A stretch of 39,015 nucleotides of DNA from positions 1 to 39,015 of the IMG/VR virus record IMGVR_UViG_3300045257_000314; one strand, written 5' to 3'. The notes under the pieces were generated by a model. That model was not told the origin of the DNA, made no database searches, and worked only from the letters and a program-made list of their open reading frames with translations. Both the position numbers and the translations under genes were made by a program. Source of the stretch: a virus. Of this stretch, positions 21,269 to 39,015 are shown in pieces. The stretch's first letter is position 1. Each line of letters begins with the position of its first letter.

Positions 21269-22150
21269 CTACTTGGTGCAGAGCAGCTTGACAGCCCAGT
21301 TGCTCGAGTTGGTGGTGGCTGCCGCGGCCTCGTCTGCCTCCAGTCGCTCGAACATGCCGTAAATGCAGTCCATCGACACGATCCAGGCCAGGTCGAGCGG
21401 GCTGTACCAGGTGTGGGTGGTGGGCTGGCGCTGGATCGCCTTGAAGTAGTGCGTCTTGCTCCAGAACGCGCCGGTCGCGGCAGGAGCCGAGCCCGCGAGC
21501 AACTGCGATTCATAGACGTCGGCGCCGTACATGCGGCCGACCTTGGCCTCTTCGACCGCCGTGCCGCCCTCGGACTCGCCGATGTACAGCATGTTCGTGA
21601 ATTTCTCCAGCTTCAGAAAGCCGGAGTAGGTCGCGGGCGGAACCACGATGTACCAGGGCCTGGGCGCGGCGTTGTTGCGCAGCAGGGTGCGGGCAAGAAT
21701 CAGGTTGTCGTCGGTCAGCTCCGCGCTCGAGGTCCCGCTCGAGTTGGTCGCGGCGGCGAACAGGCTCGCGGCATCCACGTCCATCTGACGCGCGAGCGCA
21801 TACGCGCCGGCGATCGTCGTCTCGGAGCGGATGTCGTACCGGCTCTGGATCTCGGCGATGTCCTCGATCTCTTGCGCGATGGCCCTGTGCCCATTGGTCA
21901 TCGGCAGGACGAATTGTTGCTGGGTCTCGGTGATGGCCTGCGGGGTGAGTGCGGTGCCCGCCGCCTTGGCGTTGGCAGTCAGGTTGTGCCTTGACGGCAG
22001 GTTGATGGTGTTGGCGTGCTGGTCGACCAGCGAGCTTTTGTCGTCGAATAATGCCGCGACCACGACGTCGTACTGGATGGCCCGATTGAGTTCAGGCGAC
22101 CAGACCTGGTCGATGTAGAGCGCGGCCGTCGTAATCGTGACGTCGGCCAA
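21269..22150 (-). CDS. Major capsid protein (HK97-fold expected)
   Basis: 293 aa, immediately downstream of the scaffold-like gene. TTG start with GGAGGG 11 nt upstream. A 7-bp hairpin (22173-22194) lies in the 46-nt spacer. The assignment rests on position, size and composition. Confidence 0.7.
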   Translation of the reverse strand: MADVTITTAALYIDQVWSPELNRAIQYDVVVAALFDDKSSLVDQHANTINLPSRHNLTANAKAAGTALTPQAITETQQQFVLPMTNGHRAIAQEIEDIAEIQSRYDIRSETTIAGAYALARQMDVDAASLFAAATNSSGTSSAELTDDNLILARTLLRNNAAPRPWYIVVPPATYSGFLKLEKFTNMLYIGESEGGTAVEEAKVGRMYGADVYESQLLAGSAPAATGAFWSKTHYFKAIQRQPTTHTWYSPLDLAWIVSMDCIYGMFERLEADEAAAATTNSSNWAVKLLCTK

Positions 22151-22196
22151 GGTGGTATGAACCCTCCGGTGGAGGGCTGTTTGAAGTCAGCCCTGG

Positions 22197-23066
22197 TTAG
22201 CTGCGACTGCGCTCGGCATCGGCGCGCATCTGGGCCGTCATCGCATCAATCTGCGCTGGGCTCAGCTTGCGGGCGTCTTTCGGCGACAGGGTCGCGTATT
22301 CCTCAATCGAAACGTTGCCGTCTGAGTGGCTCGAGCCATTGGCGCGTTCGGGCGTGGCGCGCGAGCCGACCAACCGACCGCGCAGCCCCTGAAGTTCGGC
22401 CTCGAGCCGAGCCACCTGGTCCTCGCGCGAGCGTTTGCCCAGGTCGAACGCACGTTTGGCCAGGTCCGCGGCGGACGGGGCGCTGTGCAGGGTCTGGTAC
22501 TCGTTCTCGCCGACACCCTCGAGGTCGCGCAGCGTTGAAAAATCCTGGGCCATCTCGGTCAGGATCTGCTGCCGCGTGGCCTGCTGAAGCTGTTGCGCTT
22601 CACGGTTACCGCCGTACATCTGTGCGAGCTCACGCCGGGCCCGATCCACGGTTGCCCAGTCATTGGACCCCAGGTCCTGGAAGAGACTGTCCACGCGTTG
22701 CGTGGCTTCGCGCTGCGTTTGCTCGTATTGCTGCGCGCGTGTGCGTTCGGCCTGCTCCCGTTCGTGCTTGGCTTGACCTTCTGCCAGACCACGCTGGTAC
22801 GCCTCGTCGGCAGCTCGTCGGCGGGTCCCCCGTGTCTCACCCTGGCTTAGCTCAGGTGAGGCAACGGTTCCAGCGCTCTCGGGCGGCGGTTCGGGGATCG
22901 TGGCTTCGTCAGGGTCCGGTGCGTCGTCGGCGGGTGGTGCGGGCGTGGTCTCAGGGGGTCTCAGGCTCTCGGGGTAGATCGATTGATCGGGACCGAGAGC
23001 GATGGTGACCTGGGACTCGCCGTCCGGACTCGTCGGGGCAGGTGCGCCTGGCTCAGCGTCTGGCAT
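22197..23066 (-). CDS. Scaffolding protein
   Basis: 289 aa. The N-terminus is Pro/acidic-rich and is followed by a long charged coiled coil (AEGQAKHEREQAERTRAQQYEQTQREATQR). It lies directly upstream of the capsid gene. Confidence 0.65.
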   Translation of the reverse strand: MPDAEPGAPAPTSPDGESQVTIALGPDQSIYPESLRPPETTPAPPADDAPDPDEATIPEPPPESAGTVASPELSQGETRGTRRRAADEAYQRGLAEGQAKHEREQAERTRAQQYEQTQREATQRVDSLFQDLGSNDWATVDRARRELAQMYGGNREAQQLQQATRQQILTEMAQDFSTLRDLEGVGENEYQTLHSAPSAADLAKRAFDLGKRSREDQVARLEAELQGLRGRLVGSRATPERANGSSHSDGNVSIEEYATLSPKDARKLSPAQIDAMTAQMRADAERSRS

Positions 23067-23202: not shown

Positions 23203-23445
23203 ATGCAGACTCAGTCTAAATCCTGGCCCCTGGTCCTCGCGATCTTGATCGCCGCGCTGATGCTCTGCGCAACCCTGCTCGTCCTCAATCTGCGCAGGAC
23301 GTACCCGTTCGTTGACACCACCAATAACAAACTGCTGATCGACAACACCGTGTACTTACGTTTGCTGAGCAGCGGCTGCACGACGGTGCCCACGCCGGCT
23401 GGCGGAGTCGCCGCGGTCAGTTGCCCACTCTGGGTCTCGCCCTAG
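23203..23445 (+). CDS. Moron-like membrane-anchored small protein on the opposite strand
   Basis: GAAGGAGG lies 9 nt upstream of the ATG and a TATAGT -10-like box is at 23125-23130. An N-terminal TM segment (WPLVLAILIAALMLCATLLVLNL) is followed by a ~50-aa tail. Hand-counted GC3 of about 82% supports coding. Confidence 0.7.
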   Translation: MQTQSKSWPLVLAILIAALMLCATLLVLNLRRTYPFVDTTNNKLLIDNTVYLRLLSSGCTTVPTPAGGVAAVSCPLWVSP

Positions 23446-26400
23446 CCGCCCAGGAGCGACTGAATGAGCGCCTGGTGCTGCGCCAGACGCGCTGACGCGC
23501 CTGGGTCGGTGTATTGATTGCCGAGGATGTCCGGGCCATAGCCCACCACTGGCGCCAGCACCCCCGTCGACTGCATACGGCTCTGGGCCGCGCCAGGCGT
23601 GCGCACGATGTCGCCCAGCACCATCCGACCAGCGGCCGACGCCGCGGCCGAGTCGATACGCTCAAGCGCCGCGCGTTGCGCGTAGGGCTGCATCTGTTGA
23701 AACTGCGGCGACGCCACCAGCGGCGCGGCTGACCGCTCCAGGATCTGGCCGCGATACTGCTCGAAGGCGCGCTGCTCCTCAGGCTTGAGCCGCAGTTCGT
23801 TGGCTGGGCCGTAGGGAATCGTGGCTGGCGGCCCGGACGGCGCCACCCCCAGACGTTGCATCGCCTCGAGCAGCGGCGTCGGCTGACCAGCGGCGGTCTT
23901 CACCGGCAGCAACTCCCCCAGGCCTTGCAACGGGTTACTGATGGGTCGCCCGAGCACGTCCTGGCGCGCGGGCAGGCCCTCACGCAGTCCAGGAATGTTC
24001 TGAGCGACGTGCTCGAGGACACTCTGCGGCAGCTCCTGCAGCGTGCGCGGCGTGAGCGTCTGGCGTTGCGTCGGGTCGGTCATCTCCGCCACCGATCGCA
24101 CCGTGCCCGACGCGGGAACCATGCCACCCAGGACTTTCGAAGCAACATCGCCCGCCGCACTCATGCCGGCACCGGACGCGTTCGAGCTCGAGCCCACCGC
24201 GTCGTACAGATCGGCGAGGGTCCGCATCGGCGTCGCTGATGCCACCTGCCGCCCAATCTCCGACACCAGTTGCCAGGCCGCGGCGGTGAGCGGCTCTTCA
24301 ATGCCGTACGCCTGCGGGCCGGCCGTCTGTTTGGTCGCCAGGGCTTTGGTGTAGGCCTGGTACGCATCCGCGTAGGCCCCGGCGGTCATCAACGGTCCGC
24401 GCAGTTGTGGCGGCAGTTTCTGCCAGCTGTGGTACGCCCCGTCGGGGCCGATGAAGCTATTCGGCTGGTTGCCGTTCGCCAGCCACGCCTGATGCTGGCC
24501 GGGGTCGGTCGGGCCGTCGCCGGTGACCTGGCCGGCCAGGGCTTTGTTGGCCAGCCACATGCTGGCAACGGTGCCGATGATGTTGTTGGTCAGCCGCTCG
24601 GTGAGCGGTCCGACCGCCGTGCCCGTCGGCGTGCTGCCCAGCCCCGCGGCATACGGGCCTTTTCCAGCCAGACCTCGGGCGACGTCGAAGCCCGTGCCGA
24701 CCAGACCCAGCGGCGACGCCTCGACCATGCGGCTGCCGAGAGCCATGCCCATGCGGTACACCGGGAACAACGCATCGCCGATCGGACCGGCGCGATTGAC
24801 GAAGTTGCCGAACGCACTGGCCAGCGTGCCGAGATCGCCGCGGCCCGCGGTCCGATCGCCCACCGCCTGCGCGCGGGCAACGACGTCCGCCGGTAGCCGC
24901 CCGAGCTCGGTGCTGAAATTGCCCTTCCAGCCCGGACTGAAAATGGTGTTGCCAGCAGCATCACCCGCCGCGGCGCCCATCTCCATCCGTTGGATCAATT
25001 CCGAGGTCGCGTTCTGGAACGCGCCATGCAACGCACCCATCCCCTCGATGAGATTCGCTATGACTCTTGGCGCGCCGCCGCCAGCCCGCGCCGACAGCGA
25101 CGTGGGGCGTGACAGCGAATCGCTCAGGCCGGCCAGGAAGTGATCGCCCCAGTCGGCGATGCCGGACATGGCCCCCAGCGTGCGGCCAGCCATGCGCCCC
25201 GGTGAGAGTGACACGAGATCCCGCACGTACCCCGCGCCGGCGCTCAGGATGGGGCTGAGCGTGGCATTCGAGGCCACGTCAGCCATCGTGTTGAGCCCGC
25301 CAATGACGCCACCCTTGTACGCACCCTGAAGCCAGTCGGCCGCGCTGATACCACCAGGGGCCGATGGCGCCGCTCGAGCAAGCCGCATCGCCTGTCCGGC
25401 ACCCGCAACTCCGGCGAAGCCAGCCCCAGCGCCGAGCGCGGTGCGCAGCGCACGTTCCTGGGGCGACGCATCGTCGGGCGTGGTCTCGTAGCCCGCCAGG
25501 CCGCCGGCCGCGGCACCACCCAGGTGCGCCGCGAACTCGGCCGATGCCATGCCGCCCTGCGTGCCACTGATCGCGTTGCGGACCTTGTCGAGCGAGTCCG
25601 GGAAGATGATGTTGACGTCGTGCTCGATGGGAACTCCGGATGCGTCGGTCATCGGGATGCGCTTGCCGCCCGAGTGCTGAATGCCATCGAAGCCGGCGTC
25701 GGCGAGCACCTGGTTGGCAGCAGTCTTGCTCCCGTCGCCGACCTCGCCGCGGATCGTGTCATACACCGACGCACCATCGACAGCGGGCGTCGACCAGCTC
25801 TGGACCTCGGCTCGCGTCTCCGGATCTGCAAGTGCATCCGTCCCCCAGAGCCGTTTGGCGATCGCCTCAGCCTGGTCCGCGGGCACCGGGCGTTCCATGT
25901 CAAACAGGTTCAGGTTCTGCGGCACGTCGATGGCGCGAACATTCGGTCCAGCGAACTGCTGGATCTGCGTCTGAGCCTTCGTGAGCAGATCCTCGAGCGC
26001 TGTACGTCCACTCTCAGATAGGTCCGGGTTCTGGAGCGCCTGACGAATGCCGTCCACCTGGTCGGTAAGAATGTTCAGACTGTCCGGCGGTGGTGCGGTC
26101 TCCTGGGCATAGCCCCGGCTGATCACGGACCCCGGCGCTCGTTTGACTGAACTCTTGAGCCACGACGGCCCCACCTGCTCGCCACCGCTCGCCACGACAC
26201 CACCAGCAACGCGCGGATCGCTCGTCAGGTAGTAGCCCGGCCCGAACAAATTGTCCTCGCCGCTCACCGCCGACGGATCGACCCTGGGGAAGTCTGAGCC
26301 CGTGCCGTGGAACATCCGCGTCGCCTGCTCCTCGAGCGGGGCACCCTGAGTGGACGCGTACGCCACAGACGGTGGGCTGAGCCTGTCCAGCGCGCCCAAT

Positions 26401-28751
26401 CCCCGCCCCAGCACCTCACCACCCAACTCTGGCAGGTAGCGTTCGGCTGCACCGAGCAGACGCGGCGCGCCGGCCTCCACGGCCGGCCCGGCGAGCACAT
26501 TCCCCGCCTGACCCAGGATCTGCGAGTACGGCTGCGGCACACCCGCGGCCTCGAGCCCCGCCGAGACCGCGGGGCTGACGTCGGCCTGTGGGCCACCGAT
26601 GAACGGCTGGATAGCTTGCAGACCCAGGCCGACCCCGCCGCCCAGCGTCCCCAGAATGTCCCCCCGCCGCGCTGAGTCAAGGACGTTGGCGGCCTGGGTG
26701 AACTGGTCGGGCGTCTGAAGGGCTTGCTGGCGCTGCTGCTCGAGAACCGACAGCGCGCCGCCCCCGAACCGCCCCAGGGGAGCGAGCAGATTGCCCGCAC
26801 CCTCGAGCGCCTGGCCGCCGATATTCGGGATGCCCTGGCTCGTCAGGGCATTCTGCTGCAGGATGCCCTGAATGGTGGTCGGCGCCTGCGAGATGTCGCT
26901 CTGCGCGTTCCCCAGTACGTTTTGCCCCTGGGCGAGCAAGTCCTGGCCAGCCTTCGACGCGCTCGAGCCGACGTCCTGCACCGCCTGAAGGATGCTGTTG
27001 GCTTTGGCCTGCAGTCCGCTCGAGGTCGGGGACAGAATGCTGCCGACCAGGTCGCGGCCTTGCTGGAGCTGCTGGGTGTTCTGGCCGAGCAGATTGCCGA
27101 TGTCCGACAGGCTCTGACCGCCCAGAAATGGCAGCGGCGCGTTGCCGACCGCCTGACCGATCGACGACCCGAGGTCGGGCTGAGCGGATGAGCCAGGCTG
27201 CATCGTGCCCATCGTCAGACGCGCACTTGACTGGGCGAGCCCGTCAGACTGAGCGAGCGGGTGGTCGGCGAAGATCGCCGCGCGCACCGCACCGTGCGAC
27301 TGGGACATGCCGTTGATCTGATCGGGCGTCATCCATTCGGAGCCGCCCTTCAGGTCCGTGCCCGACGTGCCGACGTGCAACTGGCCGGTCTGCTGGTTGT
27401 AGCCGTCGACGTAGTAGTAATGCCCAGGCGTGTCGAGAATGACCGGGTTGCCGCCGGACGCGTCGCGGCCAACCTGGGCCCAGTCCACGCCCGCGGTCAT
27501 GTGCGCATCCACGCCCATCGTCTTGAGGAGTTGGACCTCGGACTGCGGCCCGGCCATGCCCTGGTCGGGATTCCAGCCCACCTGCTGGGCAAGCTGCTTC
27601 GCTTCGGCAACTGTGGGGTTGCGTCCGAAGGACTGGGCGAAGGCCAGCGCCGCGGTCGGCCCGCAGAACGCCATCGCGTCGCCCGAGCTCAGCCCCAGAC
27701 CGAACTGCGAGGTGCGCGCGACCGCGGACTGCACGCCCTGCACGGCCGTGTTCACCGCGCTCAGTCCGGTCTGTGCAGCGTTCCCGAGCGCCTGTCCTGC
27801 GCCGCCAAGAATATTCTTGACGTAGGTCTGCGTTTCCTCGAACGGGGGGATGCCGCCGTACTTGTCGACGTTGCCAGGACCGGCGTTGTACGCGGACAGC
27901 GCCTTGCTCCAGTCGCCGCCGTACTTGTCCAGGTACGACTTCATGAGGTTCGCGGCGGCCGGCAAGGCCTGCTGCGGGTTCGTGGGATCGATACCCAGCC
28001 CGCGCGCCGTCTCGGGCATGAACTGGGCGATGCCCTGCGCGCCAGCAGGCGAGCCCGCGTTGGGGTTGAAGTTGGACTCTTGCTTGATCTGACGCGTGAA
28101 AATGCCGGGGTCGATCCCCGCAGCCTGGGCGGCCTGGCGCGTCTGATCGATCAGATCGCCGGGTGCGTTCGGCTGAGGTCCGGGCGTCGGCGCGGGCGAT
28201 GGGCCTGAGGTCTGCTCAGGCGAGGGCTGAGACGTAGGCAAGCCAGGGACAGGCGCTGCATCGGCTGGACTCGGCGACGGCGGCGGCTGCCCAGCAGCGG
28301 ACGGATTGAGCAGGTTCTGAATCTGCTGCTGCGCCCAGGTCTGACCTACATCCGGGGTTGATGGCGCGGGCGCGGGGGTTGGCATTGGGGCCGGCGCTGG
28401 CGTGGACGCCGGTGATGGCGGCGTGATGCCCCCACCGGTCAGGTCGCTGGGGGCCGGCAATGCCCCGGCTCCGGGCGTCGTACCACCGATCGGCACGGGC
28501 GGCGCTGGCGCCGGCATCGGCGTGGGCGGCGGGGCTTCGACGGGCGGGGCGACCGGGGCTGGCGCAGCGGGCGCTGGCGGTGGCGTGGGCGACACCTGGG
28601 GCACCATCTGCTGTAAGCGGCCCATCGTGTCCTGCATCGCCTGCTGGGCCCAGTTCACCCCGGCGTGGACGTTCTGGGTCTGCTGCTGCGCCCACAACTG
28701 CCCTGCCGTTTGCAGGTAGGTCGCGTCGTCGAGCCAGATACCGCTCGGCAT
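23442..28751 (-). CDS. Polyvalent virion/ejection protein (1769 aa): Pro-rich N-terminus, SLT lytic transglycosylase, C39-like Cys peptidase, Gly/Gln-rich linker, ART-like domain, large C-terminal region
   Basis: SLT: FTRQIKQESNFNP...GAQGIAQFMPETA...LSAYNAGPGNV (aa ~200-312). Peptidase: AMAFCGPTAALAF...TPGHYYYVDGY (aa ~350-480). ART-like: RMFHGTGSDF...GPGYYLTSD...GFDGIQHS...IEHDVNIIFP (aa ~811-1058). Confidence 0.75.
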   Translation of the reverse strand: MPSGIWLDDATYLQTAGQLWAQQQTQNVHAGVNWAQQAMQDTMGRLQQMVPQVSPTPPPAPAAPAPVAPPVEAPPPTPMPAPAPPVPIGGTTPGAGALPAPSDLTGGGITPPSPASTPAPAPMPTPAPAPSTPDVGQTWAQQQIQNLLNPSAAGQPPPSPSPADAAPVPGLPTSQPSPEQTSGPSPAPTPGPQPNAPGDLIDQTRQAAQAAGIDPGIFTRQIKQESNFNPNAGSPAGAQGIAQFMPETARGLGIDPTNPQQALPAAANLMKSYLDKYGGDWSKALSAYNAGPGNVDKYGGIPPFEETQTYVKNILGGAGQALGNAAQTGLSAVNTAVQGVQSAVARTSQFGLGLSSGDAMAFCGPTAALAFAQSFGRNPTVAEAKQLAQQVGWNPDQGMAGPQSEVQLLKTMGVDAHMTAGVDWAQVGRDASGGNPVILDTPGHYYYVDGYNQQTGQLHVGTSGTDLKGGSEWMTPDQINGMSQSHGAVRAAIFADHPLAQSDGLAQSSARLTMGTMQPGSSAQPDLGSSIGQAVGNAPLPFLGGQSLSDIGNLLGQNTQQLQQGRDLVGSILSPTSSGLQAKANSILQAVQDVGSSASKAGQDLLAQGQNVLGNAQSDISQAPTTIQGILQQNALTSQGIPNIGGQALEGAGNLLAPLGRFGGGALSVLEQQRQQALQTPDQFTQAANVLDSARRGDILGTLGGGVGLGLQAIQPFIGGPQADVSPAVSAGLEAAGVPQPYSQILGQAGNVLAGPAVEAGAPRLLGAAERYLPELGGEVLGRGLGALDRLSPPSVAYASTQGAPLEEQATRMFHGTGSDFPRVDPSAVSGEDNLFGPGYYLTSDPRVAGGVVASGGEQVGPSWLKSSVKRAPGSVISRGYAQETAPPPDSLNILTDQVDGIRQALQNPDLSESGRTALEDLLTKAQTQIQQFAGPNVRAIDVPQNLNLFDMERPVPADQAEAIAKRLWGTDALADPETRAEVQSWSTPAVDGASVYDTIRGEVGDGSKTAANQVLADAGFDGIQHSGGKRIPMTDASGVPIEHDVNIIFPDSLDKVRNAISGTQGGMASAEFAAHLGGAAAGGLAGYETTPDDASPQERALRTALGAGAGFAGVAGAGQAMRLARAAPSAPGGISAADWLQGAYKGGVIGGLNTMADVASNATLSPILSAGAGYVRDLVSLSPGRMAGRTLGAMSGIADWGDHFLAGLSDSLSRPTSLSARAGGGAPRVIANLIEGMGALHGAFQNATSELIQRMEMGAAAGDAAGNTIFSPGWKGNFSTELGRLPADVVARAQAVGDRTAGRGDLGTLASAFGNFVNRAGPIGDALFPVYRMGMALGSRMVEASPLGLVGTGFDVARGLAGKGPYAAGLGSTPTGTAVGPLTERLTNNIIGTVASMWLANKALAGQVTGDGPTDPGQHQAWLANGNQPNSFIGPDGAYHSWQKLPPQLRGPLMTAGAYADAYQAYTKALATKQTAGPQAYGIEEPLTAAAWQLVSEIGRQVASATPMRTLADLYDAVGSSSNASGAGMSAAGDVASKVLGGMVPASGTVRSVAEMTDPTQRQTLTPRTLQELPQSVLEHVAQNIPGLREGLPARQDVLGRPISNPLQGLGELLPVKTAAGQPTPLLEAMQRLGVAPSGPPATIPYGPANELRLKPEEQRAFEQYRGQILERSAAPLVASPQFQQMQPYAQRAALERIDSAAASAAGRMVLGDIVRTPGAAQSRMQSTGVLAPVVGYGPDILGNQYTDPGASARLAQHQALIQSLLGG

Positions 28752-28754
28752 ACG

Positions 28755-30386
28755 CTACGCCAGGGCGGTCTGGGTCGGGGCCTGCTGGCCGATGCGACTC
28801 TGCTGGTACTGCTGCAGGAACGACGGCAATGACCCGCCCGCGGCACCGATGCCGCTGCCCAGCGCCTGGAGCTCGTCCGGACTCAGGCGCTCGAGCGCAC
28901 CGGGCCCGAGGCTCTGGGCGCCCTGGCCCATGATGCCCTGGATGGCGCCCAGCGTCTGGTTGTAGTCCCAGCCTGGCGTCGCCGACGTCGTGCCACCCAA
29001 TTGACCGGCGAGACCTGCGGCCGTCTGCGTGTTCGGCGGCGTGCTGCCCGTCCCCTGGAACGCGGGCATGCCGATGTTATTGGCCAGCGACTGCAGATAC
29101 GTGGGCACGTTCTGATTGCCTTGGGCGCCGCGGAGATAATTCGAGAGCTGAAACGTGTTCTGCGGACCCTGGAGCTGCGCGGCCGTGCTCAAGTACTGCT
29201 GGCCGAGCTGGCCCTGCTGCAAGCCGAACGACTGCTCGAACTGCGCCTGTTGCTGCGCCTGTTGAGCGGCGAACTGCTGCTGGGCCTGGGCGAGTTGACG
29301 GGCGAACTCGCTGGCAGCCTCAGTCGGCGCGCCCTGGTACTGGCCACTGAGTTGCGCTTGCTGCAGCGCACCCGCGAGCGTCTGCTGCCCAGCCCCACCA
29401 CCACCAGCCGGCGTCTGGGCGCCGCCTGAAGCGCCCGGTGCAGCGGCAGCCGCGCCGGCAGGACTGTAGCCGGTCGGCAGGCCGTACGCGACGTTGCCAC
29501 TCTGGGCAAACCCCTGCGACCACTCAGATTGGGCCGTCTGCTGAGCCTGGCCCTGAGGCATGCCCGCGACACTCATGAGTTGCTGGATGCGCGCCTGCAT
29601 GTACTGGTCCTGGGGATTCGCCCCACTGCCCGCGGTGGGCGCGCCGGTCGTCGTCTGGCCGCCCATCGACGGCATGCCGTAGGCCACGTTGCCGGATTGA
29701 GCAAAACCCTGGCCCCATTCAGACTGCGCGGTCTGCTGCGCCTGCGCCAGGCCCATGCCGGCCACGCTCATGAGCTGCTGCGTCCTGGCCTGGATGTACT
29801 GGTCCTGGGGGTTCGCCGCCGCCGCGCCGCCGCCGGTCGTGGTGCCAGTACCACCCGCCGCGCCGCCGCCGGTTGGGTTCGTCCACTGGGCGACGCTGGG
29901 CACGCTCGATGGCGGGTTGAAGTAGCCCGTCAGTCCTGCAGTCGTCGCGGCCTGGCTGTACTGCTGAGCCTGCTGGGCCAGGGCGAGCTGGCTCTGGAAC
30001 TGCTGTTGCTGCAGTTGGGCGAGCTGCTGGTTGATCTGCAACTGCGGAATGCCCAGTTGCTGCATCTGCTGCTGGGCGAACTGCAACTGAGCGTCGAACT
30101 CGGCTTTTTGCTGGGCGAGCTGGGCCTGGGTGACGCCCGAAACCTGGGCGCCCAGCGCGTTCAGGCCGCCCAGGTTGGGATTGACCAGACCCTGAGGATT
30201 GATCGTCGTCGGGCCTGGATTCGGTGCCGTGCCGCCGCTTGAGGAGCTGTCGCCACCGAAGCTGCCACCCGTCCACGACGACATGCCCCGCGCGCTGGCC
30301 GCGGTCTGCTCGGCTTCCTGCAGCGAGTTGCCGCTGGCATAGATCGTCCCGCTTCCTGACGGATCCGGCAGCGCATACGTTGGCAT
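28755..30386 (-). CDS. Gln-rich low-complexity internal virion/ejection protein
   Basis: The tracked ORF starts at TTG 30389. The ATG at 30386 shares a base with the upstream TGA. It contains a 65-aa-period internal duplication. Confidence 0.55.
   Translation of the reverse strand: MPTYALPDPSGSGTIYASGNSLQEAEQTAASARGMSSWTGGSFGGDSSSSGGTAPNPGPTTINPQGLVNPNLGGLNALGAQVSGVTQAQLAQQKAEFDAQLQFAQQQMQQLGIPQLQINQQLAQLQQQQFQSQLALAQQAQQYSQAATTAGLTGYFNPPSSVPSVAQWTNPTGGGAAGGTGTTTGGGAAAANPQDQYIQARTQQLMSVAGMGLAQAQQTAQSEWGQGFAQSGNVAYGMPSMGGQTTTGAPTAGSGANPQDQYMQARIQQLMSVAGMPQGQAQQTAQSEWSQGFAQSGNVAYGLPTGYSPAGAAAAAPGASGGAQTPAGGGGAGQQTLAGALQQAQLSGQYQGAPTEAASEFARQLAQAQQQFAAQQAQQQAQFEQSFGLQQGQLGQQYLSTAAQLQGPQNTFQLSNYLRGAQGNQNVPTYLQSLANNIGMPAFQGTGSTPPNTQTAAGLAGQLGGTTSATPGWDYNQTLGAIQGIMGQGAQSLGPGALERLSPDELQALGSGIGAAGGSLPSFLQQYQQSRIGQQAPTQTALA
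29475..29816. repeat. Diverged tandem duplication (~195-bp period) inside the Gln-rich gene
   Basis: ANPQDQYIQARTQQLMSVAGMGLAQAQQTAQSEWGQGFAQSGNVAYGMP against ANPQDQYMQARIQQLMSVAGMPQGQAQQTAQSEWSQGFAQSGNVAYGLP. Confidence 0.8.
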
Positions 30387-32227
30387 CAACTAACCCCCTG
30401 CCCCATCGCGGCATACGGTGACTTCACCGCGCCTGAGCCGAGCTCATTGCCCCACAACTGGTGGACATAATCCGTGGTCGGCGGTGCGTAGTTCTGAAGC
30501 ACGCTCGGCATCGGCAAGCCTGGGCCAGCCGAGAGCGCCGTGCCCTGAGCGCTCGAGCCCTGGGCGAGACCGGGGAATTGCTGAGGCGGCGACTGCGTCT
30601 GGCCCTGGCCGCCAATATTGATGGTCACCGGTGCGCTCGTCGTCGGCGCGTTCGCCGGCGCGGTTGCCGGGGCGGGTGGTCTGAGCATCGGTGGTGGCGC
30701 GGGTGCTGGGCCGGTTGGTGCGGCAGGTGGCGCCAGTTTCTGCAGCAGTGCCGGCAACGCGGGCGCCTGGGGCATCTGGGGCGCGGCAAACTGAGGTGCC
30801 TGGGTGCCCTGCGCAATCTGGCCCATCGCCTCGGCGAACGCGGGACCGAGGGCCTGTGAGCCCGCCGGCGCGTCCTTCATCACCCCCAGCAGTGAGCCGA
30901 GCACACTGCCGGCCGTCCCGGTGTACTGGTTCGCCCTCGAGGCCGCGGCTGCCTGGGCTGCATTCGTCAATGACGCCTGGGTGCCGAACGCGGTCAGCCC
31001 GGCGTTGGCCGCGGCAACGTTGGCCGCGTACGGCGTGGTGCCCGACAGCGTCGCCGTCGTGAACTGTTTCAGTAGGTCGTTGGCCTCGTTGGGATCGCCC
31101 GAGCCACCTGGACCGAACACCTGCTGCTGAATCGTCTGGATCGCCTTGATCTGGTCCTGCAGCCCGTACAGCGGACCCAGCTTGTCTTTCTCAATGCCCG
31201 CCTGCGCCTGGGCCGTCTGCGCCCCAGCCAGCCCCGCCTGGGCGCCCGCGAGCCCCACCTGAGCCGGCAGCAGCGTCGAGGTCTGTGCCTTCGTCTGGGC
31301 CGTCTGGGCGTCTGTCAGCCCCGCGTTGGCCGTCGCCTGCGTGGCCTGGGCCTGGGCGAGCTGTGACTGCGAGCCGGTGAGGCTGGTCTGGGCGTTGGTC
31401 AGCCCGGTCTCGGCTTTTTGCTTGTCGATCAGACCCGGCAGCAGCGCGTTGGTCTGGTCGGCCTGTGCGTTCAGGGCCTTGGCCTGAGCGTTGAGCTGGG
31501 CAATCTCCGCCGGCGTCTTGGCCGTGGTTGCCGCGGCCGTCGCCAGCAGCGAGGCCGCCTGGGCACTGGCCGACGTTGCCTGGGCCGCAACCAGCGCTTT
31601 CTGGCCGTCTGAGCCCTCGTCGAGGACTTTCGCCTGCGTCCTGGCCAGCCCAGCGTCCGCGTCGGCCTTCGCCGCGGTGGACTGCGCGACCTGGACCTGG
31701 CCTGGATCAACGGTCCCATCGTGGATCGCGTCGTTGAGCGTTTTGCTGCGCGACGCGTTGGCCGTCTCGACGCGCTGCAAGCCCTGGCTGAGAGTCGAGT
31801 ACAGTGCGTTCAGGGTGCTGGTGGCGGCGGTCAGTTTCGCCGGGTTGGCGATGGTGGCGGGATCGTTCTGTGCCTGATCGACGAGAACTTTCTGGGCGTT
31901 GATCTGATCCCACAGCTTGGCGACGTCGGTGTTGGCTTTCAGCAGCTCGGCATCGGACTCGCCGATGACCTGCGAGACGGTGTAGCCACCCATGCTCGGC
32001 GACCCTGGCGCAGCCGGGCCCGCGGCTGGACCCGTGGTGGACGTGGCCGCTTTGCTTGCGTTGGGGTCGATGTTCACGTTGGTGACGGGTGCCTGCGCGG
32101 GCTGGTCGCTGGGCGCGACATACGGCGTGTTGGCGCCGCCAGGTTGCGTGGCTGGCTGACCCGTCGCCGAATCGACCCAGATGAACTTGCCGGGATTGTT
32201 CGGATCGGGTCGCGCGGTTATGGGCAC
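30386..32227 (-). CDS. Ala/Gln/Thr-rich helical internal virion/ejection protein
   Basis: 613 aa with a GTG start. It has long AQTxxA-type helical low complexity and a Pro-rich C-terminal part. Confidence 0.5.
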   Translation of the reverse strand: MPITARPDPNNPGKFIWVDSATGQPATQPGGANTPYVAPSDQPAQAPVTNVNIDPNASKAATSTTGPAAGPAAPGSPSMGGYTVSQVIGESDAELLKANTDVAKLWDQINAQKVLVDQAQNDPATIANPAKLTAATSTLNALYSTLSQGLQRVETANASRSKTLNDAIHDGTVDPGQVQVAQSTAAKADADAGLARTQAKVLDEGSDGQKALVAAQATSASAQAASLLATAAATTAKTPAEIAQLNAQAKALNAQADQTNALLPGLIDKQKAETGLTNAQTSLTGSQSQLAQAQATQATANAGLTDAQTAQTKAQTSTLLPAQVGLAGAQAGLAGAQTAQAQAGIEKDKLGPLYGLQDQIKAIQTIQQQVFGPGGSGDPNEANDLLKQFTTATLSGTTPYAANVAAANAGLTAFGTQASLTNAAQAAAASRANQYTGTAGSVLGSLLGVMKDAPAGSQALGPAFAEAMGQIAQGTQAPQFAAPQMPQAPALPALLQKLAPPAAPTGPAPAPPPMLRPPAPATAPANAPTTSAPVTINIGGQGQTQSPPQQFPGLAQGSSAQGTALSAGPGLPMPSVLQNYAPPTTDYVHQLWGNELGSGAVKSPYAAMGQGVS

Positions 32228-32228
32228 G

Positions 32229-32837
32229 TCAGGTCACTCCAGCGGGTTGCGGCATCGGAATCGACAGCGGCACGTTTGAGCCGCCCATCGGCGGCAGATT
32301 GCCGAGTGTCGGGACCACCGGTGGCTGCATCGCGGGCAGCGCCATCCCAGGCCCTGGCATCGGCCCCGGAGAGGGTTGGGGCAGTCCACCAGGACCTGGG
32401 AGCGGCATGGGCGGAGGCGCGCCCTGTACTGGCGGCTGCTGCGCCATCAACAGCGGCACCGTCGAGCTCGTCGGCTCCTGGGGCGCTGGTTGACCCGTCG
32501 CATCGGCTGCCCAGCCAGCGATCTGACGGGCGTTGCTGATCGCGTCCTGGGTGTCGGCGCCGCGGTACAGCATGCTGCGCATTGGATACACCTGGTCGAG
32601 CGCCTGGCCTGGCGGCATGCCCTGGGCGACCTTCTGGTGGTAGGCGGCATCGGCGGCTTGTGTCGAGCCGAGCGGCGAGAAATTCCAGCGCTGCACGGCA
32701 TCATCCTTGCTCAACTGCGTGCCGCTGAGCGGCTGGCCCAGGCGCCCGGCTATGCCGTCGGCGTACTCGCTGACGCGCTGCGCGAACCCATTGACGGTTT
32801 GCTGCAAAACGTCCTGGCTCGAGGCGCTGCCGGCCAT
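32229..32837 (-). CDS. Hypothetical virion-associated protein with a Pro-rich C-terminus
   Basis: 202-aa ATG ORF. Confidence 0.5.
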   Translation of the reverse strand: MAGSASSQDVLQQTVNGFAQRVSEYADGIAGRLGQPLSGTQLSKDDAVQRWNFSPLGSTQAADAAYHQKVAQGMPPGQALDQVYPMRSMLYRGADTQDAISNARQIAGWAADATGQPAPQEPTSSTVPLLMAQQPPVQGAPPPMPLPGPGGLPQPSPGPMPGPGMALPAMQPPVVPTLGNLPPMGGSNVPLSIPMPQPAGVT

Positions 32838-33568: not shown

Positions 33569-35614
33569 CTATCCACCCGGAGGAGGTGCGGCCCCCGGTC
33601 CGACTATGGCGCCCGCTTGCTGGGAAGCGAGCACGTCCTGACGCATCGGCCCAGCGCCAATGGCTCCCGCCATGATCCCGCCCACCGCTGAGTTTACCGG
33701 CTGTGGCGGCGCGGTCCCCTGCAGTTGGCCGGTCTGGCCCGGCAGCCCACCACCTGGCAACGCCGCGGTGGGCGTGCCGTCGGGCATCGCCTGACCCGAC
33801 TGCACGGCAGCGAACAACTGCGCCATTTTCTCGTCGTCCAGTTTCTTGGCCACGAGCTGGAACAGGTACTGCTGGCCCTGCGGCGTGTTGAACAGCAGTT
33901 TCTCGGTCTGAATTTCGATCATGGTCTGGTCGGGACTCTCGTCGCCCAGACCTTTCTCAAGGGCCTGGCGCAGCGGGATGCGGCCCTCGAGCGACCACTG
34001 CATCAACATCTGCGCGTAGGGTAGATTCTCGCCTTCCTCGGGCGGGTATTCGGCGTAGAAGTCGTACACCCCTTGCGTCATGTCGCGGGTCAGTTCTTGG
34101 GCTTTACGCACGGATTGGCGCATGCCCTTGGGCTGCACGCTGCAGTACACCGGCACCGTCACGTCATAGTGCTCGACGATGCGATCGGCGATCTCGGTGG
34201 CCATACTGCCGACGAACGTCATCGCCTCGAGGCCACCGTTGAGCACGTCGTCATAGGCGTCCTGCAGCATGCTCCGGATCAGCGCGCGGTCGTGGCCGCT
34301 CGTCGCCCCCGGACCACCACCGGCTGCCGCTGAGGGCGCCTCCTCGTGCACGCTGCCCAGCATCAGGCCCATCAGTTCGTCGACGTCCTTGTTGGTGCCA
34401 GGATGCGTGGCGGGCACCGGGGTGCCTGCCACGTACTGGGCCTTCATGGGCTGGATGTCGATCTCGCGCGGCCGGCCATTCTCGAGCACCAGGTCCGGCG
34501 AGACGTCCGCATTGGCCGGGATGAACCAGCCCCCGAACGCGTGCTGCCAGGCATGCGCCAGCTTGGCCGTAGCCAGGTTGTTCATGCCCTGGAAGACACT
34601 GAGAAAGGGCCACAGGAACGGGACGCCGCGACGGTCGGGGTCGGTCTCACTCGCAAAATTGCAGCCCCATACCCAGGTGCCGCACAGCCGCGTGATCCCG
34701 AAGTCTTTCGCCAGGTCGACGGCCGCCAGACTGGTCTCGCCGCCGGCATTCACGCGGTGGGCCAGGGTGATATTAGAACCGTCGGTGGCCGGCGCGGTCA
34801 CGCCCTGGCCGATGTAGTACACGACGCTGCCTGGCCGCCACAGTTCGTACAGCGTGAATTTGGGGTAGCTGCCGCGCGACTGCGACATGTAGTCGGGGTC
34901 GTAGCCCGGTCCGATGTGGCCCGTGTCACCGAACCGCCAGCGATAGCCGCGCGCCTCGAGCTCCTCCTGGGCGTACTGCGACCGCACGAGCAGGCCGTCA
35001 AGGCGATGGCCTGGACCCAGCATCGGCAGGCACTGGTCGATGCCGATGACGCGGATGCTCATGGGCACCTGTCGGGCACGCCAGTCGAGCAGATACTCCT
35101 CGTACTCAGACGCTGACTGTTTCATCGTCTGACGCTTGAATTGCGGGTACACGCCGCCGTCGTCGTCCACGAAGCTGGGCATGTTTTCCCAGCCCGCGGA
35201 CGCTGGAAAACACAGCACGGCGCCGGAACCCTGGTTGAACAGCATGTCCATCAAGGGGCGCCAGAACTTGCCATGCTGCTCTTCGATCGCGGTGATGGCC
35301 GCGTTGGCCCACACCTCGAGGTCAGACGCGCCGGTACGGGCGGTAACCGACTTGCCCATCGGGTCGCGTCTGAGCCGCGGGCGTTTGCCTGACAGCATCT
35401 GCACCGCGTGCAGCGGCACGGTGATGGCGTACGGCAGTTTTATCGCGAGGTTGCCGGCGACCTGGGCGAAGTCTTTGGGGACGACCGGGTCCCAGCGGTT
35501 ATTCAGCCAGTCGCGACAGTCGCGGACACGAAGACGCGACGTCTGCCACTCGTTGTACTTACTCCACCACATGGTGGCGAGTTGGCCGCCGGTGGGGACG
35601 TCGCCTTCACGCAT
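33569..35614 (-). CDS. Portal protein
   Basis: 681 aa from the ATG at 35614, which shares a base with the upstream stop. It follows the large terminase after one small gene. Size and position are the main evidence. Confidence 0.7.
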   Translation of the reverse strand: MREGDVPTGGQLATMWWSKYNEWQTSRLRVRDCRDWLNNRWDPVVPKDFAQVAGNLAIKLPYAITVPLHAVQMLSGKRPRLRRDPMGKSVTARTGASDLEVWANAAITAIEEQHGKFWRPLMDMLFNQGSGAVLCFPASAGWENMPSFVDDDGGVYPQFKRQTMKQSASEYEEYLLDWRARQVPMSIRVIGIDQCLPMLGPGHRLDGLLVRSQYAQEELEARGYRWRFGDTGHIGPGYDPDYMSQSRGSYPKFTLYELWRPGSVVYYIGQGVTAPATDGSNITLAHRVNAGGETSLAAVDLAKDFGITRLCGTWVWGCNFASETDPDRRGVPFLWPFLSVFQGMNNLATAKLAHAWQHAFGGWFIPANADVSPDLVLENGRPREIDIQPMKAQYVAGTPVPATHPGTNKDVDELMGLMLGSVHEEAPSAAAGGGPGATSGHDRALIRSMLQDAYDDVLNGGLEAMTFVGSMATEIADRIVEHYDVTVPVYCSVQPKGMRQSVRKAQELTRDMTQGVYDFYAEYPPEEGENLPYAQMLMQWSLEGRIPLRQALEKGLGDESPDQTMIEIQTEKLLFNTPQGQQYLFQLVAKKLDDEKMAQLFAAVQSGQAMPDGTPTAALPGGGLPGQTGQLQGTAPPQPVNSAVGGIMAGAIGAGPMRQDVLASQQAGAIVGPGAAPPPGG

Positions 35615-35949
35615 CAGTGACGCGTGGTGTCTTTGCTCTCGTGCTCCTGGGCACTGCCTCTGGGGCTCTCGTGCTCCTGTGTTCGGGTCGCCACGGCGGC
35701 GGTAGCAGCGGCTGCGGCGGCGGCCTGCGCTTCGGCAACCTCTTCGGGCGTGGCCAGGCGTACGGCCCACAACTGGCGCACCTGGTCGAACTCGACGTGC
35801 AGCGGCGGATCGGCCCCGAGCAGGGCCGTGGCGCCGGCCTCGTCGAGACCGGGAAGCTCGGTGTAGATGGTGGCGCTGTCAGATTCCTCGAGTTGGGCGG
35901 CGAGGACGGCAGCCTCACCGGCGAGATCACGTGGAGATGCAGTCGGCAT
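35614..35949 (-). CDS. Hypothetical acidic protein between terminase and portal
   Basis: 111 aa. The ATG lies 6 nt downstream of a TACACT -10-like box (plus-strand 35956-35961). Confidence 0.55.
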   Translation of the reverse strand: MPTASPRDLAGEAAVLAAQLEESDSATIYTELPGLDEAGATALLGADPPLHVEFDQVRQLWAVRLATPEEVAEAQAAAAAAATAAVATRTQEHESPRGSAQEHESKDTTRH

Positions 35950-35990
35950 GCACCCAGTGTACGTTTCACGGTCAAGGTTTCACGCCGGGC

Positions 35991-37343
35991 TCACGGCTCG
36001 AGTGGATTCCTCGGGCCGCCCTGGGAAAACTTGCCGCCGACCAGCGCGCCGTGGTGCCGCACGTTGGCCGATTGCGTAAACAGCACCTCGAGCATGCGCG
36101 TTTGCCCGAGCTTGCCGAACTTGTAGACCGCCAATGCCAGGGCGCACACGCCGTCGTCGTGCATTCCCTCCGGTGCCGCATAGTGGACTCCAGTTCGTGT
36201 GTAGGCGTACTCGAACGCCTCGAGCTCCAGTTGCAGGATGCCCTCCGGAAAGCCGATCGTGTGCTCCTGAATCGCGATGGCCAGGCCCTCCATCAACAAC
36301 TGTTTGGAGCGCTGGTTGAACACATAGCCCTCGACGTTGCGGTGCTCCGCGTTCAGCGCCTGGTCGATCGGCCCCCCAGGTCCGGTGGAGTCGACCGCGG
36401 CCGGCGCGCGGCCAACCAGGTCGCGGATACGGCGCAGGGTGACCTCCCAGAATTGCGGATGCGAGGTGGATTCGGATGCGTCGGACTCCGGGTCGAGGCT
36501 CGGGTACGCGGTTTGGTTCCAGCGCTCCGAGCGGCACACGCTGCCGTGGTCGCACAGGGCTATGCCCCAGGTCCAGTCGTTCGCACGGGCCAGGTCCCAG
36601 CCCCACACCGAGGGTTTGCACTCCGCGTGCATCGGCTCGAGGCACGCGCGGATCGCCTGGATGCCGAACGGGTTGCCCTCGTCGTCGCTAGGCTCGGCCT
36701 CGTACAGCTCGCGAAAAACTGCCTCGGGCAGTTTGCTCCTGGCGTCGTCGATCTCGGTCTGGGCGAGCACGCCGGCCTGCACCGCGTCGTACGCGGTGAT
36801 TTTGGCCCAGTGCATGCCGGGTTCCCCCGCCTCGGCGCGGACGCCGAGCTGGTACGCCCAGTTTCGGCGGCCCTTCACGTTGCCGATGATGCGGACCGGC
36901 CCACGGGTCGCGGTGAGCGTGGACCGGACCGCGTACCAGGCCTCTTCTCGGCACCGGGTGGCCTCGTCGATCACTGCAGCGTAGACATCCTCGCCGTACA
37001 GGTTGTCTGGCTTCTCCGCGCTCTTGAACCACAGCACCGCGCCATTGGCCAGGGTGAGCGTCAGGTCGGTCTCACGCGGCTTGTAGAGACCTCTGGGAAT
37101 GCCGTACTTCATGCGTTCGTAGGCGACCGCGGCCTGGGAATAGACAGGAGCGATCCACCAGAAATTTTGGCCGCGGGCGCCTTGCATCGCTTGCTCGAGC
37201 AACCACACCAGGCAGGCCACAGTCTTGCCGGACTTCGTACTGGCGGCCACGATGGCGTAGCGTTCCGGCGCGAACACCGCGTCCAACTGATAGTCGGCCA
37301 TCCAGGGCCGTGTGTAGGCGGCGGTGCGCTCAATCGTCGACAT
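35991..37343 (-). CDS. terL: Terminase large subunit
   Basis: 450 aa. Walker A is IVAASTKSGKT and Walker B is YAAVIDEA. The nuclease half carries acidic motifs. It overlaps the small terminase gene by 14 nt. Confidence 0.9.
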   Translation of the reverse strand: MSTIERTAAYTRPWMADYQLDAVFAPERYAIVAASTKSGKTVACLVWLLEQAMQGARGQNFWWIAPVYSQAAVAYERMKYGIPRGLYKPRETDLTLTLANGAVLWFKSAEKPDNLYGEDVYAAVIDEATRCREEAWYAVRSTLTATRGPVRIIGNVKGRRNWAYQLGVRAEAGEPGMHWAKITAYDAVQAGVLAQTEIDDARSKLPEAVFRELYEAEPSDDEGNPFGIQAIRACLEPMHAECKPSVWGWDLARANDWTWGIALCDHGSVCRSERWNQTAYPSLDPESDASESTSHPQFWEVTLRRIRDLVGRAPAAVDSTGPGGPIDQALNAEHRNVEGYVFNQRSKQLLMEGLAIAIQEHTIGFPEGILQLELEAFEYAYTRTGVHYAAPEGMHDDGVCALALAVYKFGKLGQTRMLEVLFTQSANVRHHGALVGGKFSQGGPRNPLEP

Positions 37344-37611
37344 GGGCGCGCTGAATGGTGAAACTGAACGCCTGGCCGTCGGTGGTCAGATCGACCTGAT
37401 CGGGCACCTTGCCGTCGATGCGCTCGAGCACGACGGCGATGGCCTTCACGTCGCCGTCCTGGGCCATCTGAATAAGCCGTGATGCCACATGCTCGGCTCG
37501 TGTTTTGCCGTCCTGTTTTTCGAGCAGCAGGCGTCTAAGCCACGGGGTAATCGTGGGTTCGCTCTTGGGACGGCCGGCAGGATTTCCACTCTGGCCTTTC
37601 TGAAATTTCAC
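37330..37611 (-). CDS. terS: Terminase small subunit-like protein (GNPAGRPK motif)
   Basis: 93 aa with a GTG start. The N-terminal KGQSGNPAGRPK motif is typical of DUF5681-type phage small terminase-like proteins. It lies directly upstream of terL. Confidence 0.65.
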   Translation of the reverse strand: MKFQKGQSGNPAGRPKSEPTITPWLRRLLLEKQDGKTRAEHVASRLIQMAQDGDVKAIAVVLERIDGKVPDQVDLTTDGQAFSFTIQRAHVDD

Positions 37612-38825: not shown

Positions 38826-39015
38826 GCCGCGGCCGAGCGTACCGCTGGCGGAGTGTGCCAGCCCCGGTTGCCGCAGGTCGGTCCGGGTGGCTCGAGCTCG
38901 TCCTGGCCGCACTTGTAGCACCAGTTGCCGGTGCGGGGTGGCGGTGCTCCGTCGGTCGGGGAGACGACCTCGCTGCGGTGCCCGCCGTTGCAGTCCGGGC
39001 AGCGCAGGGCTTTGC
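38822..39015 (-). CDS. 3' portion of the junction-spanning DnaJ-type zinc-finger gene (same gene as 1..422)
   Basis: The frame continues ...NWCYKCGQDELEPPGPTCGNRGWHTPPAVRSAAA and stops at TGA 38822-38824. Bases 38889-39015 duplicate 1-127. Confidence 0.6.
   Translation of the reverse strand, partial: KALRCPDCNGGHRSEVVSPTDGAPPPRTGNWCYKCGQDELEPPGPTCGNRGWHTPPAVRSAAA
38889..39015. repeat. Right copy of the exact 127-bp terminal direct repeat
   Basis: Identical to bases 1-127. Confidence 0.95.

Follow-up and report, generated by a model that had tools for sequence, protein, structure and literature searches.

A viral DNA stretch of 39,015 nucleotides (nt) (IMG/VR record IMGVR_UViG_3300045257_000314, positions 1 to 39,015; called the window below, which always means the whole stretch that was analysed) carries on its minus strand, at 23442..28751, an ATG-initiated open reading frame (ORF) for a giant protein of 1769 amino acids (aa). 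The data suggest that this protein is a polyvalent internal virion protein, which would be packaged in the phage head and ejected at infection, and we give this explanation a probability of about 0.6. A glycan lyase, a cysteine peptidase and a module of the ADP-ribosyltransferase (ART) type are found together in this one ORF, in the same operon as the terminase and capsid genes, while the C-terminal part of the protein matches a family of internal virion proteins. Virion-packaged polyvalent proteins have been described before, and ARTs with a His-Tyr-Asp (H-Y-D) active site were the commonest protein-modifying domains among them (Iyer, Burroughs, Anand, de Souza and Aravind 2017; PMC5512222).

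The ORF had been pointed out in an earlier note on the same DNA, made from the sequence alone, and its extent was confirmed, with the addition of the minus strand, which that note had omitted. All motifs quoted there were located in the translation: WAQQQ at aa 20 and 139, QES at 224-226, FCGPTA at 362, GHYYYVDGY at 443, FHGT at 814, GPGYYLT at 837 and IEHDVNIIF at 1042, together with GIAQFMPETA and AYNAGPGNV. The gene starts 3 nt past the stop codon of the upstream gene, and its start codon is supported, because the N-terminal motif MPxGIWLxDD is kept in relatives (here MPSGIWLDD).

Domain layout of the giant protein

The protein is divided into the following regions, from the N terminus to the C terminus:

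28167..28751 (−), aa 1-195: conserved N-terminal ~60 aa, followed by a Pro-rich spacer with WAQQQxQN at aa 20 and 139
27831..28139 (−), aa 205-307: SLT lytic transglycosylase; catalytic E225 at 28077-28079
27330..27719 (−), aa 345-474: C39-like papain-fold cysteine peptidase; C363 at 27663-27665, H444 at 27420-27422, H459 at 27375-27377
26334..27329 (−), aa 475-806: S/Q/G/L-rich low-complexity linker, defined by composition (S/Q/G/L-rich stretch aa 471-806)
25551..26333 (−), aa 807-1067: ART-PolyVal-type (H-Y-D) module with two helical inserts; H815 at 26307-26309, Y841 at 26229-26231, D1022 at 25686-25688
25335..25550 (−), aa 1068-1139: conserved Gly/Ala-rich junction ('LGGAAAGGLAGYETTPDD...ALGAGAGFAGVAGAG')
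23445..25334 (−), aa 1140-1769: mostly helical C-terminal domain shared with 'internal virion proteins'

The first enzymatic domain is a lytic transglycosylase. It matched the Pfam SLT model (PF01464) with 81.5 bits versus a cut-off of 21.3 (E-value [E] 4.4e-23), and E225 in the QES motif was at least 90% conserved in the alignment of relatives, which bears out the earlier proposal of an SLT domain with a catalytic glutamate. The best PHROG families for this region were those of lytic virion proteins, and PHROG 342, annotated as 'internal virion protein with endolysin domain', was matched with E 4e-31. In the Protein Data Bank (PDB) the domain matched T7 gp16 and the SLT domain of a tape-measure protein, and a profile of the whole family likewise retrieved only SLT matches from the PDB. 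The NCBIfam models that matched the giant protein were also lytic transglycosylase models only, all of them far under their cut-offs.

The SLT domain is followed by a C39-like domain, which passed the cut-off of the Pfam model PF13529 (Peptidase_C39_2) marginally (aa 360-458, 25.9 bits versus 24, E 1.6e-5). Among 59 distinct relatives C363 and H444 were each present in all 59, Q349 was present in 55, and the position of H459 was occupied by His in 53 and by Asn in 6. The domain is also the best-conserved block of the giant protein. The invariance of C363 and H444 in such a block argues that this is very probably an active cysteine peptidase, and both the Pfam match above cut-off and the full conservation agree with the papain-like peptidase that had been proposed with the same two residues, Cys363 and His444. 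That it is a second muralytic enzyme was an assumption of the earlier note, and a role in self-processing is equally open.

The remaining regions flank or separate these domains. The N-terminal 200 aa contain 22-30% Pro, and the first ~60 aa are 55-67% identical even in those relatives that have different later domains; as a guess, this segment could be a signal for incorporation into the virion. The linker is conserved in part only (36-61%) and has no family match. No transmembrane helices were found across the giant protein, the best 19-residue Kyte-Doolittle mean being 1.12. The Gly/Ala-rich junction is kept in relatives both with and without the ART module. In one relative, P0051, the segment directly after its ART module (aa 842-881) matches the Pfam family 'Glycine zipper 2TM' (E 2e-5). 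The corresponding reading of the window's junction was dropped, as neither the window nor six close relatives gave such a match and the junction has no strong hydrophobic helix.

The 702 residues that follow the ART-like block had earlier been described as about 700 residues with no recognisable motif. This description did not hold, as they contain a conserved domain of internal virion proteins. The window's protein matched PHROG 6651 ('internal virion protein') with E 1.2e-10, and all 14 aligned relatives matched it as well, with a best E of 2e-14. The match is partial, and covers aa ~1392-1620 and profile positions 1025-1228 of 1375. Within the close family no part is shared more widely than aa 1140-1769, in which 68 columns are invariant.

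The ART-like module

The earlier note had placed an ART-like block at aa 811-1058. The data showed that this block is a discrete module, conserved in dozens of giant metagenomic relatives. The window's own match to the Pfam ART-PolyVal model (PF18760) reaches no further than the first third of the profile (positions 8-60 of 140), because the module contains two helical inserts. Among 26 aligned copies of the module, 20 matched PF18760 (E<=1) and 17 matched DUF3990. The module of one Pfam-positive member, P0055, retrieves standalone proteins of ~300 aa that are annotated as PF18760, and the standalone protein P0056 matched PF18760 with 63 bits over positions 2-134 of the 140 in the profile. When a profile of the module family, with P0055 left out, was compared using hhalign with the group of standalone PF18760 proteins that includes P0056, the alignment extended over the whole domain with a probability of 99.8% (E 3.5e-29). 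Through these intermediates the homology of the block to ART-PolyVal is established transitively at the sequence level, which upholds its assignment as ART-like.

The active site of ART-PolyVal domains consists of a His in strand 1, a Tyr in strand 2 and an Asp in strand 5 (PMC5512222). In the hhalign comparison H815, Y841 and D1022 of the giant protein align with the H, Y and D of the PF18760 proteins. Y841 and D1022 (in GFDGIQH) are invariant, while H815 is at least 90% conserved and is replaced in one of the 26 copies (Asn in P0044). Hence, H815-Y841-D1022 is the predicted active-site triad of the module. The Glu of IEHDVNIIF, which had earlier been taken for the catalytic acid, did not prove to be so, since at position 1043 E, Q, S, R, A or N is found among relatives. 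Two further residues, R939 and H1044, are invariant outside the described triad.

An AlphaFold2 (AF2) model of the module, based on the alignment of its family, was obtained with a mean confidence (predicted local distance difference test, pLDDT) of 84.8, and it has strands at the expected places, broken by the two helical inserts. H815 and Y841 lie on strands 1 and 2, and D1022 is the residue just before a later strand. A Foldseek search of BFVD with this model gave phage polyvalent proteins as the best matches (E 1e-8 to 1e-3). The comparison of an ART-family profile with the PDB returned one irrelevant match, to a helical region of ABCF1 (E 0.0017), which falls within a helical insert.

The distribution of the module was assessed by a profile search of 1.84 billion representative proteins, which gave 3965 matches with E<=1e-3, of which 843 had E<=1e-10. 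With few exceptions, the best 150 matches were proteins of 1000-3300 aa, in which the module is internal and sometimes present in several copies. In a set of giant proteins (P0070-P0196) some contained up to nine matched ART stretches, for example P0173, which is 3696 aa long. These proteins echo the multi-copy ART proteins of Iyer et al.

Relatives, exchange of the ART block and genome context

Protein and IMG/VR searches showed that the giant protein belongs to a large family of proteins of 1400-2850 aa, and most of the contigs that encode them are 37-43 kb long. Nearly all of 77 related IMG/VR loci have the C39-like domain, and the lytic domain that precedes it is SLT in most relatives and a glucosaminidase, M23 or NlpC/P60 domain in others. 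About 18 of the 77 loci carry the ART module. The gene order TerL, p733, p202, p613, p544, giant gene, p289, major capsid protein (MCP) is found in at least 22 IMG/VR loci, and also in the locus L001. Across these loci, numbering at least 22, capsid identity is 84-99%, while the identity of the C-terminal domains of the giant genes ranges from 34 to 99%.

The comparison of close relatives showed that the ART block is an optional, exchangeable insert. In the locus L011 (IMGVR_UViG_3300046836_000748) the giant protein is 89% identical to that of the window over aa 1-660 and 94% identical over aa 1133-1364, where its contig ends, and about 105 unrelated residues stand in place of aa 661-1132. In the locus L014 (IMGVR_UViG_3300047315_000706) the capsid gene is 99% identical, the giant gene has no ART module, and its C-terminal domain is only 42% identical. 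The presence of giant genes without ART on such near-identical backbones suggests that the giant gene is a hot spot of recombination or hypervariation.

The similarity to GenBank phages that was found by tblastn lies in the N-terminal enzymatic part. When the giant protein was compared by tblastn with 50,697 GenBank phages, the matches ran through the SLT region and some reached the start of the C39-like region (~aa 440), while the linker, the ART block and the C-terminal domain were unmatched among the 30 matches listed. Separate tblastn searches of the same phages with the ART block and with the C-terminal 702 aa, as well as a megablast search with 19 kb of the window, gave no match. The nearest GenBank example is the podovirus MW202473, which shares aa 208-440, covering the SLT domain and the beginning of the C39-like region, and its counterpart gene lies in the classical position of internal proteins, between the tail-tube and fibre genes. 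No prophage relatives were found in GTDB representative genomes in two scans, one by alignment of the giant protein and one with the capsid protein, and the assembly index held no record of the exact sequence of the giant protein.

Positions 1-127 of the window are an exact direct repeat of positions 38889-39015 (127 nt), which indicates that the window is a complete genome of 38,888 bp; the repeat is either a terminal repeat or the overlap of a circular assembly. The other features that bear on the context of the giant gene are as follows:

33569..37611 (−): head-packaging genes at the start of the operon, namely a DUF5681 protein, the large terminase and a 733-aa ORF
28755..32837 (−): p202, p613 and p544, immediately upstream of the giant gene, defined from translations and synteny
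21269..23066 (−): p289 and the major capsid protein, downstream of the giant gene
6778-8508 (−): large serine recombinase (Resolvase, Recombinase and Zn-ribbon domains)
2469-3467 (−): RecT recombinase
9274-9552 (+): SWIM zinc-finger protein

The genes for a serine recombinase and for RecT make it probable that the phage is temperate, and it can be described as an uncultured, podophage-like phage of 38.9 kb. Its late genes are all on the minus strand, and the G+C content at third codon positions of the giant gene (0.82) is similar to that of the other late genes. In the order of transcription of this strand, the late operon contains the genes for the DUF5681 protein, the large terminase, the 733-aa ORF, p202, p613, p544, the 1769-aa protein, p289 and MCP, and then small genes, which include a podophage Gp80-like fibre match and a Laminin_G_3 protein. 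The large terminase matched PHROG 2 (E 1.5e-27) and also Pfam Terminase_6N, and MCP matched Pfam Phage_capsid_2 (E 7e-7), while its homologue in L001 is annotated as Phage_capsid_4. The 733-aa ORF (33569-35770, minus strand), which adjoins the terminase gene, is a putative portal by its position, size and composition, and it had no portal or other match in Pfam, PHROGs, NCBIfam or the PDB. Its true start is probably further downstream, because its first ~50 residues are rich in Arg and Cys and do not look genuine, and because the L001 homologue has 681 aa. Similarly, p289 (289 aa) is charged and helical and lies before the capsid gene, and it is a putative scaffold by position, size and composition, with no match in the same four databases.

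The products of the three genes between the putative portal gene and the giant gene also gave no match in Pfam, PHROG, NCBIfam or the PDB, and neither did a 188-aa neighbour. The genes p202, p613 and p544 overlap or abut one another and the giant gene, and all three encode low-complexity proteins that are Q/A/T/G/P-rich, p613 and p544 being Q/A/G/T-rich; their products are candidate ejection or core proteins, which could be packaged together with the giant protein. The p544 ORF (28755-30389, minus strand) contains a 148-nt direct repeat with 77% identity and a spacing of 195 nt, at 29475-29622 and 29670-29817. It encodes, within the Q/A/G-rich p544, the protein repeat 'ANPQDQY[IM]QAR..QQLMSVAGM..QAQQTAQSEW.QGFAQSGNVAYG'.

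Pfam and PHROG scans of the window ORFs recognised no tail-tube, sheath, chaperone or tape-measure genes. The ORFs scanned, among them ten further ones that were searched with Pfam for an endolysin, gave no recognisable endolysin, holin or spanin. The only muralytic domains recognised among the scanned ORFs are those inside the giant protein.

The position of the giant gene between portal and scaffold genes had been called unusual in the earlier note. Its location within the block of head genes was confirmed; on the other hand, three genes (p202, p613 and p544) intervene after the putative portal gene, and the conservation of the gene order means that the position is not unusual.

Competing explanations and known systems

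According to the explanation that we prefer, the giant protein would be made late together with the head proteins and incorporated in the capsid, probably alongside p613 and p544, and it would leave through the portal and tail at infection, ahead of the DNA or with it. The SLT domain, and possibly also the peptidase, would then open the peptidoglycan locally, and the C-terminal domain would help to build or traverse a conduit through the envelope, as T7 gp14, gp15 and gp16 do. In the cytoplasm, the ART module would carry out an NAD+-dependent ADP-ribosylation of a host target ahead of all phage gene expression; such a step would have its analogy in the action of T4 Alt and in the model put forward for polyvalent proteins. 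The part of the protein between the linker and the Gly/Ala-rich junction would serve as a cargo slot, which is filled here by the ART-PolyVal module. The virion and ejection role, which had also been proposed earlier, fits the gene context and the matches to PHROG 342 and PHROG 6651.

Several observations weigh against this explanation. The giant gene lies upstream of the capsid gene, unlike the genes of T7 or phiKMV internal proteins, and the protein has no detectable similarity to T7 gp16 outside the SLT domain. The portal and scaffold labels are putative. The AF2 model of the C-terminal domain, which is mostly helical, is poor (pLDDT 52). Its BFVD matches, which were internal virion proteins of cyanopodoviruses and of a Pelagibacter phage as well as ART-PolyVal or LPD proteins, have template-modeling (TM) scores of ~0.2 despite E of 1e-8 to 1e-5, and they therefore count as a hint only. 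The window's own score against PF18760 was 14.6 bits versus a cut-off of 31.2 (E 0.058). The best match in a Foldseek search of the PDB with the model of the module had E 0.27, and there was no ART among the 50 matches listed. The helical inserts may mask the core of the fold in this comparison. As no solved ART was retrieved, the fold assignment rests on the published classification of the family, to which the module belongs by its sequence. No separate endolysin was recognised in the window, which leaves a role of the lytic domains in lysis formally possible. Finally, it is by inference that we speak of virion incorporation and ejection, and the same is true of the substrate of the peptidase and of the activity and target of the ART module.

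The giant gene could in principle encode a tape measure protein with lytic domains, in a phage of the sipho- or myo-type. This would agree with the best PDB match of the SLT domain, which is the tape measure protein 9b45 (E 1e-7), with a weak match to the tape-measure family PHROG 1506, with the SLT domain shared by the Geobacillus E3 tape measure, and with the long low-complexity, helical region. However, the gene is located between the genes on the terminase and portal side and the capsid gene, rather than after tail-tube and chaperone genes, and this order is conserved; major tail, sheath and chaperone genes were not found in the window. The likeness to tape measures is also confined to the SLT domain, while the C-terminal domain matches a PHROG of internal virion proteins, so that we consider this explanation very improbable. 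Even smaller is the chance that the giant protein is the endolysin of the phage, acting in lysis from within. Although no other lysin domain was recognised among the scanned ORFs, families could not be detected for many ORFs of this phage, which makes an unrecognised endolysin likely. Moreover, the protein is 1769 aa long, is encoded inside the head-gene block, carries an ART module and an internal-virion-protein domain, and has internal virion and tail lytic proteins as its best PHROG structural categories. Both explanations are rejected because of the gene context.

Two other alternatives concern single steps, and they are compatible with a head-packaged, ejected protein rather than exclusive of it. 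One is that the C39-like domain, rather than being muralytic, is a self-processing protease that does the work done in other polyvalent proteins by the zincin metallopeptidase. Cleavage of the giant polypeptide, for instance at conserved Gly-Gly junctions, would then release the ART cargo and other modules, either in the capsid or in the host, and this would alter one step of the preferred explanation. Pfam assigns the domain to the C39-like family, whose founding members cleave after double-glycine leaders, and its Cys and His are invariant in all 59 relatives, whereas the adjoining lytic domain is exchanged for glucosaminidase, M23 or NlpC/P60. No zincin metallopeptidase, which is the usual processing enzyme of polyvalent proteins (Iyer et al.; PMC5512222), was found in the giant protein with Pfam. 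In addition, the embedded ART modules have at their end an almost invariant N-A-x-S-G-T-x-G-G motif, which is absent from standalone ART-PolyVal proteins. On the other hand, this SGTxGG motif is also kept where a C39 domain was not found, for example in P0040-P0044, P0049 and P0052, which makes its link to processing weak, and the residues before the Gly-Gly do not match the classical consensus of double-glycine leaders. Peptidase_C39_2 is listed in excerpts of surveys of phage cell-wall lytic enzyme domains, and in the 77 loci the C39-like domain always stands beside a glycan-cleaving domain, as in bifunctional lysins. We therefore regard processing as a tentative alternative, with odds below even.

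The other alternative is that the ART-like module does not ADP-ribosylate a host protein, and instead modifies nucleic acid, as DarT does, acts as an NAD+ glycohydrolase, or is a non-catalytic structural or binding module. Neither the work of Iyer et al. (PMC5512222) nor the 2022 survey of the same group gives a substrate for any ART-PolyVal member, and the ART superfamily includes enzymes that modify DNA, RNA and small molecules (PMC5512222; PMC9503650). Such a role could also be in agreement with the two large helical inserts, with the invariant R939 and H1044 beyond the triad, with the Foldseek search of the PDB, which retrieved no solved ART fold, and with the copy in P0044, which has Asn for the strand-1 His. 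However, the H, Y and D are kept in copies that are 30-72% identical in pairwise comparison with the window's module, as well as in standalone PF18760 proteins, and this conservation across a divergent family argues for retained catalysis. Against a non-protein target stands T4 Alt, the precedent for a head-packaged ART, which modifies protein. In our judgment this alternative is unlikely, slightly more so than self-processing.

A more speculative proposal, which we consider improbable and place well below either of these alternatives, joins several of the above elements. The C39-like peptidase would be the built-in processing enzyme of a cargo-slot ejection protein and would free the effector in the slot at SGTQGG and LGGAAAGG after assembly or ejection. 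The ART-PolyVal in the slot would disable host defence or reprogram transcription, and near-identical phages would swap or drop the cassette in an arms race. If true, the giant protein would be an analogue of those polyvalent proteins that rely on a metallopeptidase, with a cysteine protease in its stead, and would amount to a modular system of natural origin that delivers proteins into bacteria.

T7 gp16 is ejected and cuts peptidoglycan at entry, and the same would be expected of the giant protein as a head-packaged, ejected protein. Like T7 gp16 (PDB 7eyb, 6yt5 and 7k5c), it is longer than 1300 aa and has an SLT domain near the N terminus. In contrast to T7 gp16, it has ~195 extra residues before the SLT domain and an added C39-like peptidase and ART module, and the similarity is limited to the SLT domain (whole-family profile positions ~192-290). 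Its gene also precedes the scaffold and capsid genes, instead of following tail-tube genes together with equivalents of gp14 and gp15. The C-terminal domain matches the PHROG 6651 group and, as a hint from the structural comparison, the internal virion proteins of the cyanopodoviruses S-CBP2, S-CBP3 and S-RIP1 and of a Pelagibacter phage; it differs from the PHROG 6651 group in that only ~200 profile positions are matched and in that it has no BLAST-level similarity to any GenBank phage. A functional precedent for an injected ART module is T4 Alt, a head-packaged ART that enters the cell along with the genome and acts on host proteins before phage genes are expressed (PMC5512222). Whereas the module of the giant protein is of the H-Y-D clade and forms part of a putative ejection protein, T4 Alt is a single-domain protein from the R-S-E (Alt/VIP2) clade.

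The closest parallels are with the polyvalent proteins of phages and conjugative elements. These frequently carry peptidoglycan-attacking domains (PMC5512222), and the statements on polyvalent proteins and ARTs are repeated in the 2022 survey of the same group; the prototype of ART-PolyVal (PF18760) is the virion RNA polymerase of Roseovarius Plymouth podovirus 1 (CBX87992.1). Like them, the protein studied here is a giant multi-domain protein encoded among virion genes, with an H-Y-D ART module homologous to PF18760, a peptidoglycan-attacking domain, and domains that are swapped combinatorially between relatives. One relative, P0052, carries Pfam LPD38, 'large polyvalent protein associated domain 38'. 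Unlike them, it has no zincin metallopeptidase, MuF, virion RNA polymerase or other hub domain detected by Pfam, its C39-like cysteine peptidase is not mentioned in the main text of PMC5512222, its ART module has two helical inserts, and its chassis is a podovirus internal-virion-protein domain, not MuF or virion RNA polymerase. The domain combination had been described as unusual, which was not borne out, as the SLT domain together with the C39 domain is near-universal in the 77 loci and peptidoglycan-attacking and ART domains are each described as common in polyvalent proteins. Since combinatorial domain shuffling is a hallmark of this class, the giant protein belongs to a kind that has already been described. 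Given that the concept of polyvalent virion proteins is published, the giant protein most likely joins this class, fused to a T7-gp16-like ejection protein. What is particular here is the internal-virion-protein chassis, the conserved C39-like peptidase where there is no metallopeptidase, the location of the gene upstream of the scaffold and capsid genes, and the clean presence or absence of the cassette between near-identical genomes.

These data leave the current picture of phage entry unchanged, and they connect the concept of polyvalent effectors with an entry enzyme like T7 gp16 and with an internal-virion-protein chassis. Among the protein-modifying enzymes injected by phages, head-packaged PolyVal-type ARTs are predicted to be the most common, and neither PMC5512222 nor the 2022 survey names a target for them. 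A compact genome of 38.9 kb, with relatives that differ from it almost only by the ART block, offers a ready-made comparison for the role of this module. The strictly conserved C39-like peptidase is a possible new component of such proteins, either as a wall cutter or as a self-processing protease. The significance of the giant protein would rise if this peptidase were a built-in processing enzyme, or if the target of the ART module were a host defence system.

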